From an uncultured Ignavibacteria bacterium (GTDB lineage Bacteria; Zixibacteria; MSB-5A5; DSPP01): a stretch of DNA of 64,000 nt. The stretch is from assembly GCA_964607165.1 (NCBI GenBank), contig CAZSIT010000005.1, positions 13,492-77,491 of the forward strand. The letters run 5' to 3'. The notes under the pieces were generated by a model. It was not told the origin of the DNA. It worked only from the letters and a program-made list of their open reading frames with translations, and did no database searches. A program made the translations under genes and the position numbers. Positions 36,229 through 38,813 of this stretch are shown here, piece after piece (within the stretch, counting starts at the first letter, position 1; the number at the start of each line of letters is the position of its first letter).

Positions 36229-36235
36229 GATAAAT

Positions 36236-36273
36236 ACAGAGATTAGAGACCGGAGATTAGAGATTAGTAAAAA
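36236..36273 (+). repeat. GAGATTA heptad-repeat trailer element (ACAGAGATTAGAGACCGGAGATTAGAGATTAGTAAAAA).
   Basis: It is a tandem 7-nt periodic repeat immediately 3' of tRNA-Lys(UUU). Near-identical copies are at 38775-38813 and a partial copy at 36365-36390. Confidence 0.7.
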
Positions 36274-36284
36274 CAAAAAATCTT

Positions 36285-36357
36285 GCGCCATTAGCTCAGT
36301 TGGTAGAGCAGCTGACTCTTAATCAGCGGGTCGAAGGTTCGAGTCCTTCATGGCGCA
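36285..36357 (+). tRNA. tRNA-Lys (anticodon CUU).
   Basis: It folds as a cloverleaf with the anticodon loop CTCTTAA, GGTTCGAGTCC in the T-arm and discriminator A. Confidence 0.88.
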
Positions 36358-36394
36358 TAGAAGACAGAGATTAGATTCGAGATTAGAAAACTCC

Positions 36395-37156
36395 TTGAAA
36401 TCCGCTCTTGAATTAGCCAAAAAAGCTTCTTTGAAGGCCGGGGAAGCGGCCTTACGCTATTTTCACGGTGGCGCTAATGTTTCCATCAAATCCGACGGAA
36501 CGCCGGTGACCCAAGCGGATAAAGAGGCGGAAGAAATAATCATCCATGTTCTCAAAAAAGAAATGCCGGACTGTGGGTTTTTAGGAGAAGAATTCGGCGA
36601 GCAAGGCCCAAAGGATAAGCGTTGGATTATAGACCCGATTGACGGGACCAAAAATTTTATACGAGGAATACCGGTCTGGGCGGTGATGATTGGATTGGAG
36701 GAAGGGGGAGAAATTACCGCTGGGGTTGTCTATAATCCTGCAACGAAACAGCTCTGGACGGCGGCAAAAGACTTGGGGGCGTATTACAACGGCGAACGAA
36801 TTTCGATTTCCGCCATCGATTCGCTCGCAAATGCCCAACTGTTGCACAGCGGGTTGAATACGATGCGGAAAAGCAAGTACTGGGATGGGTTCTTACGGCT
36901 GGTAGAATCAACCAAACGCCAACGCGGGCCGGGAGATTTTCTGGGATATACGATGGTGGCGCAGGGACAAGGGGAGATTTATTTGGAGAATGAATTGAAG
37001 CCGTGGGATATTGCCGCAAATCAAATTATCGTAAAAGAAGCCGGCGGAGAGTTTACGGATTTTGAGGGGGGTTCAAGCATTTATTCCGGGTCGGCCTTGG
37101 CGACGAATGGAAAGTTGCATCGGCTGGTTTTGGAGATTCTTCAAGGCCAGACGTAG
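36395..37156 (+). CDS. Inositol monophosphatase family protein (SuhB/HisN-like).
   Basis: It has IMPase motifs (WIIDPIDGT, ...GD...). A TTG start is proposed downstream of the heptad repeat, since the longer ORF from 36350 would be translated through repeat DNA. Confidence 0.75.
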   Translation: MKSALELAKKASLKAGEAALRYFHGGANVSIKSDGTPVTQADKEAEEIIIHVLKKEMPDCGFLGEEFGEQGPKDKRWIIDPIDGTKNFIRGIPVWAVMIGLEEGGEITAGVVYNPATKQLWTAAKDLGAYYNGERISISAIDSLANAQLLHSGLNTMRKSKYWDGFLRLVESTKRQRGPGDFLGYTMVAQGQGEIYLENELKPWDIAANQIIVKEAGGEFTDFEGGSSIYSGSALATNGKLHRLVLEILQGQT

Positions 37157-37204
37157 GGGCGAATCGCCAGATTCGCCCGGGTGAGCCTGAAGGTTCACCC
37201 CTAC
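37153..37204. repeat. REP pair in alternating orientation, as in E. coli BIMEs: GTAGGGGCGAATCGCCAGATTCGCCC then GGGTGAGCCTGAAGGTTCACCCCTAC.
   Basis: This is the second copy of the two-hairpin unit seen at 31309-31361. Confidence 0.7.
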
Positions 37205-37279
37205 ATTTGAAACATTTTGATATTTCCTTATATTTCACCGTTGGGCGGGTATGTCCCCGTTCATCAGAGGAGGTTATTT

Positions 37280-37774
37280 ATGTTTATGGGCAGAGTAGTA
37301 CGTACGGCTGGGTTAGTCGCCGGAATTTTTGCGTTCGCTGTTTTTGCTTTTGCGGGCGAAGAAGAAGAAAAACAGCTTACCAAACAAGATGTGCCTGTGG
37401 CCGTGCTTGCGGCTTTCGAAAAAGCTTATCCAAAAGCGGTGGTTAAGGGCTATTCAAAGGAAGAAAAAGATGGAAAAACCCTTTACGAAGTCGAAAGCTT
37501 GGAAGGCAAAACTCATCTCGACGTTTCATACCTCGAGGACGGCAGCCTGTTTGTGACGGAGGAAGTCGTGGCCGTGAAAAGTCTGCCGGAGGCGGTGAGA
37601 CAGACAGTCAAAAAAGAGCATCCGAAAGGAAAGATTAAACTGGCGGAGAAAATTACAGAGGGAACGATCGTTGAATATGAAGTAGTTGTCGCCCTTGGGA
37701 AAAAGAAGTTCGAAATAAAGCTGGATGCAAGCGGCAAAGTTTTAGAGAGCGAAGAGGCGAAAGAAGCCGAATAG
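37280..37774 (+). CDS. Secreted PepSY-like domain protein (two repeats).
   Basis: It has a signal peptide and duplicated GK.LYEVE...G.E...D..G motifs. The start was taken at the ATG with an upstream GGAGG. Confidence 0.55.
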   Translation: MFMGRVVRTAGLVAGIFAFAVFAFAGEEEEKQLTKQDVPVAVLAAFEKAYPKAVVKGYSKEEKDGKTLYEVESLEGKTHLDVSYLEDGSLFVTEEVVAVKSLPEAVRQTVKKEHPKGKIKLAEKITEGTIVEYEVVVALGKKKFEIKLDASGKVLESEEAKEAE

Positions 37775-37785
37775 GGTTGTAAGAA

Positions 37786-37810
37786 GGGCGAACACGAGGT
37801 TCGCCCCTAC
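37786..37810. repeat. REP: GGGCGAACACGAGGTTCGCCCCTAC.
   Basis: It is almost identical to the REP at 1673-1700. Confidence 0.7.
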
Positions 37811-37977
37811 GAAACATTTTGGCGTTGCTTGCGGTTGAAAATAGGGCTGGAACTGTGGCCCTCTTTTGCCGTATATTATACGGTCGGGCGGGCATGACCC
37901 CGCCTCTGTACCAGTTTCTCCCCGGCTTCCCCGCCTGTCCGAGCTCCGATGCAATCGGAGCCAGGAGGGCAATCTCT

Positions 37978-38336
37978 GGGGGCGATCGGTTTCGACGAGG
38001 ACAAGGAGAAAAAGCTGGCCTGTCGAGCACCCCGTAAGCTCGTTAATCTCGCGGGATACCATTAAGTGCGAACGATTACGTTGCACTGGCTGCCTAATAA
38101 AATAGCGTAGCCCGTTTGACCTGCGCATGCCCTTTGGCGTAGGATCAGGCGTCGACCAAAAGGGCTGGGTGGCCGGGTGTTCGGGACCGGCGGCCGAGGA
38201 GAACTCTCGAGCTGGTCCGGGCTTGAGCCCGCCTGCGGCATAAGTCCGGATGAATAAAAAAGAAAAAAGGCTACACAGGTAGATGGCTTTTTTGAATTTC
38301 CTTCGGACGCGGGTTCGATTCCCGCCGCCTCCACCA
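37978..38336 (+). ncRNA. ssrA: Transfer-messenger RNA (tmRNA, SsrA), standard one-piece. Its tag ORF encodes ANDYVALAA followed by two stop codons.
   Basis: The 5' end is GGGGGCG and the 3' end CGCCUCCACCA, forming an acceptor stem with a G3·U wobble, the Ala identity element. It has a tRNA-like T-arm GCGGGTTCGATTCCCGC. The tag reading frame GCG AAC GAT TAC GTT GCA CTG GCT GCC TAA TAA sits at 38068-38100. Confidence 0.85.
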
Positions 38337-38348
38337 ATTTCAACCACA

Positions 38349-38427
38349 TTTGAATTTCCTTCGGACGCGGGTTCGCCTGCCCGAGCCGGGGACCTCTGGC
38401 CACGGCCAGGGATTCCCCCCGCCTCCA
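38349..38427 (+). repeat. Direct repeat A: copy of the ssrA 3' end (T-arm plus acceptor). It carries a 39-nt insertion in the T-loop and lacks the CCA end.
   Basis: Positions 38349-38375 are identical to tmRNA 38290-38316. Then comes CCTGCCCGAGCCGGGGACCTCTGGCCACGGCCAGGGATT, then CCCCCGCCTCCA. Confidence 0.75.
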
Positions 38428-38431
38428 TTTT

Positions 38432-38701
38432 TTGAATATATTCCGGCCAATGCCATATTATTTTTATGTGTTGCAATCTTCAAAGGATGGTTCCCTTTAC
38501 AAAGGAAGTGCTGAAAATATTGAGATACGTTTAGCCCAGCACAATTCCGGAAAAACGAAAAGTTTGAAGCATCGAATTCCCTTCAAAATGGTTTACTTCG
38601 AAGAATTTTCGACCCGTGAGGAGGCTTTGGCACGGGAGAAGTGGTCGAAAAGTTTGCAGGGAGGCAAAGTTCTTCGCGAACTGTTAAGGGGAAAAATCTA
38701 A
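38432..38701 (+). CDS. GIY-YIG nuclease family protein (UPF0213/YhbQ-like).
   Basis: It has the GIY-YIG core YVLQSSKDGSLYKGSAENIEIRLAQHNSG plus a conserved Glu region (EEFSTREEALAREKW). The ORF exactly fills the space between direct repeats A and B, and it is AT-rich. Confidence 0.8.
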   Translation: MNIFRPMPYYFYVLQSSKDGSLYKGSAENIEIRLAQHNSGKTKSLKHRIPFKMVYFEEFSTREEALAREKWSKSLQGGKVLRELLRGKI

Positions 38702-38703
38702 TC

Positions 38704-38767
38704 GGATGCGGGTTCGCCTGCCCGAGCCGGGGCCTCGTGCCACGGCCAGGGATTCCCACCGCCTCCA
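38704..38767 (+). repeat. Direct repeat B: second ssrA-3'-end-like copy with the same 39-nt T-loop insertion.
   Basis: It is about 90% identical to repeat A. It starts 3 nt after the GIY-YIG stop and is followed at once by the GAGATTA heptad element (38775-38813). Confidence 0.75.
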
Positions 38768-38774
38768 TTTTAAT

Positions 38775-38813
38775 ACAGAGATTGGAGACTGGAGATTAGA
38801 GATTAGTAAAAAA
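38775..38813 (+). repeat. GAGATTA heptad-repeat trailer element (third copy).
   Basis: ACAGAGATTGGAGACTGGAGATTAGAGATTAGTAAAAAA is about 90% identical to 36236-36273. Confidence 0.7.

Follow-up and report, generated by a model that had tools for sequence, protein, structure and literature searches.

Our analysis of a 64-kb window of contig CAZSIT010000005.1 from an uncultured bacterium (the window being the whole stretch of DNA that was analyzed) establishes that the GAGATTA-type heptad repeats within it belong to a module that sits as a 3′ trailer behind stable-RNA genes and is specific to one clade, a subgroup of candidate-division Zixibacteria. The module has a recognizable frame in which an A/T linker is followed by ACAG (rarely ACGG or ACGA), by two to four [A/G]GATT[A/G]G units and by an A-rich tail. 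Bacterial tRNA trailers are usually regarded as arbitrary, whereas here one recognizable module flanks many stable-RNA genes of a clade within an uncultured phylum. An earlier reading of the window from its letters alone (hereafter the sequence-only reading) had proposed that the heptads are strictly associated with the 3′ ends of acceptor stems. The association proved to be real in this lineage, but it is broader than was proposed: because signal recognition particle (SRP) RNA and some protein genes also precede the module, the link is with gene 3′ ends, chiefly those of stable RNAs, rather than with the acceptor stem.

The evidence for this association comes from two collections of related sequences. 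When metagenomes were scanned for ACAGAGATTRGAGAYYGGAGATTAG, the form of the module particular to this lineage, 34 loci were returned. Among them, the module begins 4-6 nt past the end called by the tRNA finder ARAGORN (6-7 nt past the discriminator base) of tRNA-Trp (locus L120) and of tRNA-Leu(UAA) (L121 and L137), and 5 nt downstream of SRP RNA (Rfam RF00169; L132/L142). It also stands behind displaced pseudo 3′ ends of tRNA-Leu (L121), tRNA-Thr (L122/L134) and tRNA-Val (L149), and the real tRNA-Thr of L122/L134 has behind it a variant that was not itself picked up by the search pattern. At three protein genes of similar contigs (L131, L136 and L151) it lies 4-17 nt past the stop codon or overlaps the gene end. 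The second collection comprises syntenic loci, 156.7 kb in total, that were gathered through protein homologs and not through the motif. When scored against three RGATTAG units, these loci contain 13 modules, compared with about 0.3 in shuffled sequence, and tRNA or transfer-messenger RNA (tmRNA) ends precede 11 of the 13, all on the sense strand. In the syntenic loci L154-L160 the module stands behind tRNA-Lys(UUU), tRNA-Lys(CUU) and the tmRNA gene ssrA in several genomes, and in other protein-selected loci it also follows tRNA-Trp (L162-L164) and nusG; the contigs of the close relatives stop within tuf, short of the tRNA cluster that lies upstream of that gene. The enrichment behind stable-RNA genes is approximately 125-fold (Fisher p=4e-11, which becomes 3e-6 with the count restricted to independent orthologous groups), and modules are co-directional with the upstream gene in 12 of 12 cases (p=5e-4).

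Within the window itself, tRNA-like ends precede three of the four copies, and all three tRNA-like loci bear a copy. Copy 1 (36236-36273, plus strand) is the exact 38-mer ACAGAGATTAGAGACCGGAGATTAGAGATTAGTAAAAA, composed of ACAG, the units AGATTAG, AGACCGG, AGATTAG and AGATTAG, and a TAAAAA tail. It occupies most of the 54-nt spacer between the genes for tRNA-Lys(UUU) (36156-36229, plus; Rfam RF00005, 74.7 bits) and tRNA-Lys(CUU) (36284-36358, plus; Rfam, 74.8 bits), both of which were called by ARAGORN and neither of which encodes CCA. An A/T-rich linker (36230-36235, plus) separates it from the ARAGORN end of tRNA-Lys(UUU), an end that takes in one base beyond the discriminator. Copy 2 (36365-36390, plus), a decayed A-type module with the sequence ACAGAGATTAGATTCGAGATTAGAAAAC, starts 6 nt past tRNA-Lys(CUU), and its final heptad ends 8 nt ahead of the TTG start of a gene of the inositol monophosphatase (IMPase) family. 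The full repeat and its shortened form were thus located behind the two tRNA-Lys genes where the sequence-only reading had placed them, as was copy 3 (38775-38812, plus; A-type) behind the sequence that it had called repeat B, which we identify as a pseudo 3′ end of ssrA. Copy 3 has two mismatches to the 38-mer of copy 1, so that 36 of 38 positions are identical (95%, and not the roughly 90% first estimated), and the likeness is confined to about 41 nt. The fourth copy, a short G-type module with the sequence AAAACAGGGATTAGGGATTAG (1759-1779, plus), bears out the suggestion of a related repeat near position 1764; it adjoins no tRNA-like end or other RNA gene, however, and lies behind a cluster of hairpins resembling repetitive extragenic palindromic (REP) elements. 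That the unit is built of 7-nt repeats agrees with Tandem Repeats Finder, which reports a period of 7 and 4.3 copies with 73-82% matches at both 36238-36267 and 38777-38806, as well as 2.3 copies of AGGGATT at 1764-1779. The 38-mer was matched in none of 100 shuffles, and the 15-mer GAGATTAGAGATTAG, with up to three mismatches allowed, has 10 matches in the window against 0.78 expected.

We drew the anatomy of the module from 19 examples that adjoin RNA genes. Counted from the discriminator, the linker is 6-8 nt long and 85% A+T, and the module as a whole is 60% A+T and only 6% C. Within the units, G2 (97%), A3 (100%) and G7 (96%) are nearly invariant, and a deviant unit (AGACYGG, AGATTGG or GGATCAR) almost always occupies the third place from the 3′ end. 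Two "alleles" of the module, A-type ACAGAGATTRGAGACYGGAGATTAGAGATTAGTAAAAAC and G-type ACAGGGATTAGGGATCARGGATTWGGGATTAGTRAAAGAC, recur behind differing RNA genes across genomes. The arrays have the hallmarks of heptanucleotide repeats, being head-to-tail 7-nt units whose copy number differs between relatives. A homogeneous microsatellite is nevertheless a poor description of them, and we rejected it: they do not exceed 4.3 units, the deviant unit has a fixed place, and both the ACAG lead-in and the A-rich tail are conserved. A REP or bacterial interspersed mosaic element (BIME), or a palindromic miniature inverted-repeat transposable element (MITE), was likewise rejected, as a both-strand search of the window yields direct copies only, with no inverted partner, and folding predicts no structure.

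While the module holds its position and strand, its sequence turns over in concert. The orthologs of the tRNA-Lys(UUU) spacer are G-type (GGGATTA) in L154, L155, L156 and L159, and the spacer in the window is A-type. Since copy 1 resembles the genome's own ssrA trailer while the orthologs in four relatives are G-type, we infer that one module recently replaced another here and that the window spacer was overwritten by an A-type module, probably through gene conversion. Similarly, behind tRNA-Trp an A-type module in L120 corresponds to a G-type module in L162, even though the NusG proteins of the two loci are 95% identical. Unit number also differs at orthologous sites (4 behind tRNA-Leu in L121 vs 3 in L137; 2 in L154 vs 4 in L159), such that orthologous tRNA-Lys(UUU) and tRNA-Leu sites have 2, 3 or 4 units. 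After tRNA-Lys(CUU), L159 has a full four-unit A-type module, the window, L154 (with a shorter remnant) and L156 have decayed versions, and L155 has none.

This behavior lends some weight to the idea that we are dealing with a functionless or selfish heptanucleotide repeat that resides in permissive 3′ flanks and is spread or homogenized by replication slippage and gene conversion. A unit number that wanders between 2 and 4 among orthologs, the swap of entire A-type and G-type arrays at the tRNA-Trp site, the apparent overwriting of copy 1 and the loss or decay of the module at some sites would all be expected of such an element, and other small dispersed repeats are plentiful in the genome. 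Among the long simple repeats of prokaryotes, moreover, the heptanucleotide class is reported to be the most abundant (Mrazek 2007, as referred to in PMC4679880). Slippage alone, however, predicts neither the co-orientation seen in 12 of 12 cases nor the fixed distance of 6-8 nt, and it leaves unexplained the conserved ACAG lead-in and A-rich tail, the fixed place of the deviant unit and the strong concentration behind stable-RNA genes. We therefore regard a selfish origin as unlikely, though by a long way not negligible; if it were correct, the module would be a clear example of a microsatellite-like element whose niche is unusually narrow.

The copy behind the pseudo ssrA end deserves separate consideration. 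One of the roles raised by the sequence-only reading was that the heptads are the conserved end of a mobile unit that targets tRNA genes. Integrating elements that use ssrA as the attachment (att) site of genomic islands leave duplicated tRNA or tmRNA 3′ ends. The functional ssrA of the window (37978-38336, plus; ARAGORN tag ANDYVALAA; Rfam RF00023, 183.8 bits) encodes its CCA and has no heptad module immediately 3′ of it. It is followed by pseudo 3′ end A (38349-38427, plus), which has a dispersed repeat, CCTGCCCGAG..GGCCAGGG (38376-38411), within its T-loop, by an 83-aa open reading frame (ORF) with a GIY-YIG domain (38450-38701, plus; Pfam PF01541, E=1.4e-14), which is called as a gene in L001 and for which NCBIfam and PADLOC searches returned nothing usable, and by pseudo 3′ end B (38704-38767, plus). 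Pseudo end B lacks CCA, copies the last ~30 nt of ssrA and has a 35-nt copy of the same dispersed repeat (38717-38751) in its T-loop; it is the displaced original end, and copy 3 lies directly behind it.

The relatives reveal how this arrangement arose. L159 and L160 have an intact ssrA, with neither an encoded CCA nor an insertion, and TTTAATACAGAGATTGGAGACTGGAGATTAGAGATTAG follows directly. Its A/T linker is that of copy 3 less one T, its heptad core (ACAG plus four units) is identical to that of copy 3, and only the A-rich tail differs. Because an intact ssrA directly precedes the module in these two loci, copy 3 is the original ssrA trailer rather than a mobile-unit end. A CCA-bearing ssrA end and about 13 nt lie ahead of a pseudo end in the window, L155 and L156, and the T-loop of that pseudo end holds the dispersed repeat C[CT]TGCCCGAG..GGCCAGGG. 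The GIY-YIG cassette, lying between copies of the ssrA end, is common to the window and L154. Taken together, these data establish that ssrA and several tRNA genes were ancestrally flanked by the module, and that later insertions (the CCA-bearing 3′ end, the GIY-YIG cassette and the dispersed repeat) displaced the old ssrA end together with its trailer. L121 provides a parallel, as its intact and its pseudo tRNA-Leu ends both bear the trailer.

What remains in favor of a conserved end, or attachment-site flank, of an element that targets tRNA or tmRNA genes is the setting of copy 3, which lies behind a duplicated ssrA end and close to both a GIY-YIG ORF and a region of variable genes, together with the duplicated pseudo tRNA ends that precede the module in L121, L122/L134 and L149. 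An att-site duplication does account for the position of copy 3; unlike att-site DNA, however, the heptad module is a displaced native flank and not inserted DNA. With many intact tRNA genes, in addition to the intact ssrA genes of L159 and L160, preceding the module without a duplicate or inserted DNA, with SRP RNA and protein genes doing so as well, and with duplications that carry the trailer as a passenger, as the two tRNA-Leu ends of L121 do, this part of the sequence-only reading is largely refuted, and we give it hardly any credence.

Several features of the duplicated RNA ends are of interest in their own right. Layered duplications of the ssrA 3′ end occur in the window (38291-38767) and in L154 (5700-6090), L155 (7450-7590) and L156 (7370-7500). 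The ancestral form of ssrA, as in L159 (11275-11320), lacks an encoded CCA, and the CCA-bearing end might have originated from a cDNA of mature tmRNA. The ORF that consists only of a GIY-YIG domain is bordered by ssrA 3′-end copies both in the window and in L154 (about 5790-6020), the closest relative, where the cassette comes after the functional ssrA end; it could be a homing-type cassette aimed at the 3′ end of ssrA. The dispersed G+C-rich repeat, 35-45 nt long, interrupts every pseudo ssrA 3′ end, and a pseudo tRNA-Leu end as well, at precisely the T-loop (GGTTCG^A[TG]TCC). The functional copy is always free of it, and it is also found within ordinary intergenic DNA. Besides the two window sites given above, it is present at 34098 (minus strand) in the window, at 12158 in L121, 3684 in L136, 1520, 1560 and 6034 in L154, 7537 in L155 and 7456 in L156; it has no matches in the viral contigs of IMG/VR. 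In L149 (4716-4860), a real tRNA-Val is followed by two pseudo tRNA-Val 3′ ends in which the T arm is swapped for the hairpin TCCCGATGAGTCGGGA, and the heptad module appears only after the last of the two.

Downstream of the module, L121 and L137 have a terminator composed of a hairpin and a T-run, and L139 has a G+C-rich hairpin. In L159, as in the window, the last unit of the module stops 8 nt short of the TTG with which the phosphatase gene starts. Because terminator hairpins or start codons lie downstream of some copies, the module is best viewed as a transcribed spacer that is neither terminator nor promoter, and it appears to be transcribed as part of the RNA precursor. Its predicted folds are weak, with minimum free energies between -0.1 and -3.3 kcal/mol and z-scores between +1.2 and +1.8; of 200 shuffles, 180-197 give folds that are no less stable. 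An intrinsic terminator was accordingly rejected as a candidate, with a terminator scan flagging no module and folds weaker than those of shuffled sequence. The termination role put forward in the sequence-only reading is also contradicted by the position of the module, which sits between co-oriented tRNA genes and ends 8 nt ahead of a start codon.

Other kinds of transcription signal, namely a factor-dependent terminator of the upstream RNA gene or a promoter or UP element of the downstream gene, fare little better, and we consider them very unlikely. The module does occur at the tRNA-Trp/secE and nusG/rplK boundaries, where E. coli has promoters, and its tail (TAGTAAAAA or TATAAAAA) is weakly -10-like. 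It has neither a hairpin nor a T-run, however, and its G-rich, C-poor composition is the opposite of that of Rho utilization (rut) sites. A distance of 8 nt to a start codon leaves too little room for a promoter plus leader, the next feature in L121 and L137 is a terminator and not a gene, and a promoter scan found no sigma-70-like site within the module.

The reading that we favor, albeit with a little less than even confidence, is that the module is a structure-free, C-poor spacer that would provide several endonuclease entry sites within a stable-RNA precursor. A processing trailer is also the best fit among the roles suggested by the sequence-only reading. According to this proposal, an unstructured, C-poor trailer would not compete with the acceptor stem for pairing, and each unit would offer a single-strand endonuclease site, GA|UUA (the bar marking the cut), that is close to the RN|WUU of RNase E. 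A cut within the heptads would free the stable RNA of whatever RNA or terminator hairpin lies downstream, and its 3′ end could then be trimmed and CCA added. RN|WUU is the in vivo consensus of RNase E, with U at +2 as the key determinant; its sites are AU-rich with little structure, and in enterobacterial stable-RNA precursors the enzyme cuts near tRNA 3′ ends (PMC5222698). GA|UUA matches this consensus, which comes from enterobacteria, at four of five positions including U+2. As expected of a trailer of the RNase E type, the module is an AU-rich segment directly 3′ of the mature RNA and single-stranded in the predicted fold. With regard to its place before the next tRNA or a terminator, the module also resembles the AU-rich, single-stranded tRNA 3′ trailers that RNase E cleaves in E. 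coli and Salmonella; unlike the Zixibacteria module, however, those trailers are non-repetitive and unshared between RNA genes (PMC5222698 and papers cited there). If the module is a processing signal, it would supply a sequence handle on stable-RNA maturation in Zixibacteria and a simple marker both of RNA-gene 3′ ends and of displaced original ends at integration hot spots.

Several observations weigh against a processing spacer. The +3 base of each unit is A and not the U of the consensus, and RNase Z and RNase P could suffice for tandem tRNAs that lack CCA, with no need for a special trailer. The module is dispensable at some sites, as behind tRNA-Lys(CUU) in L155, the window, L154 and L156. 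In L166, a distant but complete Zixibacteria genome (NusG 68% identical), no heptads follow tRNA-Trp, tRNA-Gly or tRNA-Thr, from which we infer that the module is confined to one clade. Finally, in Bacteroidota and Chloroflexota the heptads often form one arm of a hairpin, where a single-strand nuclease would not act.

The module may even be a dedicated, clade-specific 3′-end signal of tRNA, tmRNA and SRP RNA, one that a particular nuclease or RNA-binding factor recognizes and that has been copied between unrelated RNA genes. The recurrence of A-type and G-type modules behind different RNA genes would then follow from copying of the module as a unit. We consider this idea speculative and rather doubtful, but if true, the module would be an RNA-maturation signal that is modular and can be transferred, the like of which has not been described in bacteria.

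A different way for the heptads to act would be as an array that binds an RNA- or single-strand DNA-binding protein (for example CsrA-like, KH or S1), which would mark or regulate stable-RNA precursors or would itself be sequestered by excised trailers. The units do repeat with invariant G-A..G positions, and by our own comparison the G-type lead-in AUACAGGGAUUA agrees at 10 of 12 positions with RUACARGGAUGU, the CsrA consensus from in vitro selection (SELEX) that PMC4347634 and further papers quote; G-type modules have up to four GGA motifs each. In addition, excised tRNA 3′ trailers serve as sponges in E. coli, according to work cited in PMC5222698, and binding by S1, Csp or CsrA was proposed by MacGregor for the TAACTGA heptamer repeats (PMC4679880). 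On the other hand, most A-type units lack the GGA core that CsrA needs, the short tRNA-Lys(CUU) copies of the window and L154 have no GGA at all, the free switching between A and G at unit position 1 disfavors a strict need for GGA, and no candidate protein was identified. A protein-binding array, one of the roles raised by the sequence-only reading, thus keeps a place among the possibilities, although in our estimation an improbable one.

The heptad by itself is not peculiar to this clade. A scan of one genome per species with GAGATTAGAGATTAGWAAA found at least 117 loci, where we estimate that about 9 would be expected for random sequence, in Bacteroidota, Chloroflexota, candidate phyla radiation (CPR) groups, Campylobacterota, Streptococcus and others; no Zixibacteria were among the matches listed. 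Because none of the 117 listed loci adjoins a tRNA, the generic heptad is not tRNA-linked. The sequence-only reading had accepted that its claim would fall if copies of the element showed no association with tRNA or tmRNA 3′ ends; such a lack of association is the rule among the listed loci of other phyla and is not what the window's own clade displays. The arrays in other phyla do lie at gene 3′ ends, with a co-directional ORF preceding 58 of 102 non-duplicate contexts among the matches listed, and in 23 of these 102 the array is the 5′ arm of a hairpin with the partner arm CTAATCTC... No such partner arm was found in the window or its relatives.

In Bacteroidota, Chloroflexota and CPR genomes (loci L003-L119; for example L006, L016, L021, L045, L063 and L093), we observed arrays forming an arm of long hairpins directly after the stop codons of coding sequences, and near them further heptad arrays of CCGTAAT, TCGAAAA, GAATGAA and GGAAATT. 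Heptad-built 3′-end hairpins are widespread in these phyla, and we found no description of them. The exact GAGATTA repeat was not found in the searchable literature, and a literature search on heptamer repeats downstream of bacterial tRNA genes returned nothing relevant. Apparently, a shared heptad module flanking tRNA, tmRNA and SRP RNA genes has not been described either.

The short tandemly repeated repetitive (STRR) sequences of cyanobacteria are heptamer repeats, and a number of other known elements resemble the module in part. Like the heptanucleotide long simple sequence repeats (LSSRs) of prokaryotes, the Zixibacteria arrays consist of tandem, non-coding 7-nt units whose copy number differs between relatives; unlike LSSRs as outlined in PMC4679880, they are short (2-4 units), have patterned imperfections, are framed and strand-specific, and are tied to stable-RNA 3′ ends. 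The TAACTGA direct repeats of marine Beggiatoaceae, Cyanobacteria and some Bacteroidetes (MacGregor 2015, PMC4679880) are also intergenic heptamers, present in 2-6 copies, scattered across phyla and suspected of a post-transcriptional role. They differ from the module in their unit and in lying mostly just upstream of start codons, whereas the Zixibacteria modules lie just downstream of RNA genes. An element of Geobacter metallireducens likewise comprises four tandem heptamers (GGGACCG x4) in multiple copies (49) and was proposed to be a regulatory RNA, but it is GC-rich, is found both inside and between genes, and is not reported to be linked to the 3′ ends of RNA genes (PMC2700814). The short tandem repeats of Entamoeba tRNA arrays are microsatellite-like, tRNA-linked and fast-evolving between relatives, as the module is; these, however, are eukaryotic, accompany RNA polymerase III genes in large tandem arrays, are longer and more complex, and include no module at a fixed distance (PMC2652664).

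Regarding the genes around the copies, a sigma-70-like promoter candidate, TTGACG-16-TATATT (36000-36027, plus), matches the consensus at 10 of 12 positions in a consensus scan and lies upstream of the tRNA-Lys pair; the scan revealed no promoter-like site between the two tRNA-Lys genes or ahead of the IMPase gene. The latter (36395-37156, plus; Pfam PF00459, E=7e-60) belongs to the inositol-monophosphatase/histidinol-phosphatase family and is almost certainly co-transcribed with the tRNA-Lys pair. Its 253-aa product is identical to the called protein P0001, and since this product matches called proteins exactly, TTG at 36395 is the true start. The longest ORF for the phosphatase opens at an ATG at 36350, inside tRNA-Lys(CUU), and runs through the heptads. 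The element explains this spurious start, which should serve as a warning for annotation, and heptads in general shape ORF calls by bearing TAG in all three frames.

The closest named homologs of the phosphatase, at 70-71% identity, are from candidate division Zixibacteria, to which the NusG of a related contig is likewise assigned, and the 36.9-41.5 kb portion of the window is identical to a sediment metagenome contig from the Joint Genome Institute (JGI). Between the ssrA trailer and a conserved methyltransferase gene (40258-41076), the segment at 38813-40257 differs in gene content from each relative (L154, L156 and L159), such that the region downstream of ssrA is a variable hot spot. The 398-aa ORF that follows copy 3 in the window had no match in Pfam, NCBIfam or PADLOC searches.

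Additional repeats and conserved stretches accompany the module in this lineage. The REP-like hairpins GTAGGGGCG..CGCCCCTAC occur at 0.2 per kb in the window (1480-1760, 37160-37200, 37790-37810 and other intergenic regions) and are present in related contigs too. In L123, L140 and L143, a conserved non-coding stretch of about 300 nt lies ahead of an A-type module. The conserved stretches of these loci and of L152 have no Rfam match at the gathering score, and the ~300-nt stretch may be an unannotated RNA. On the other side of the module, all four of these loci (L123, L140, L143 and L152) have a conserved repeat, cgtcc..cctgttaaagaggg.

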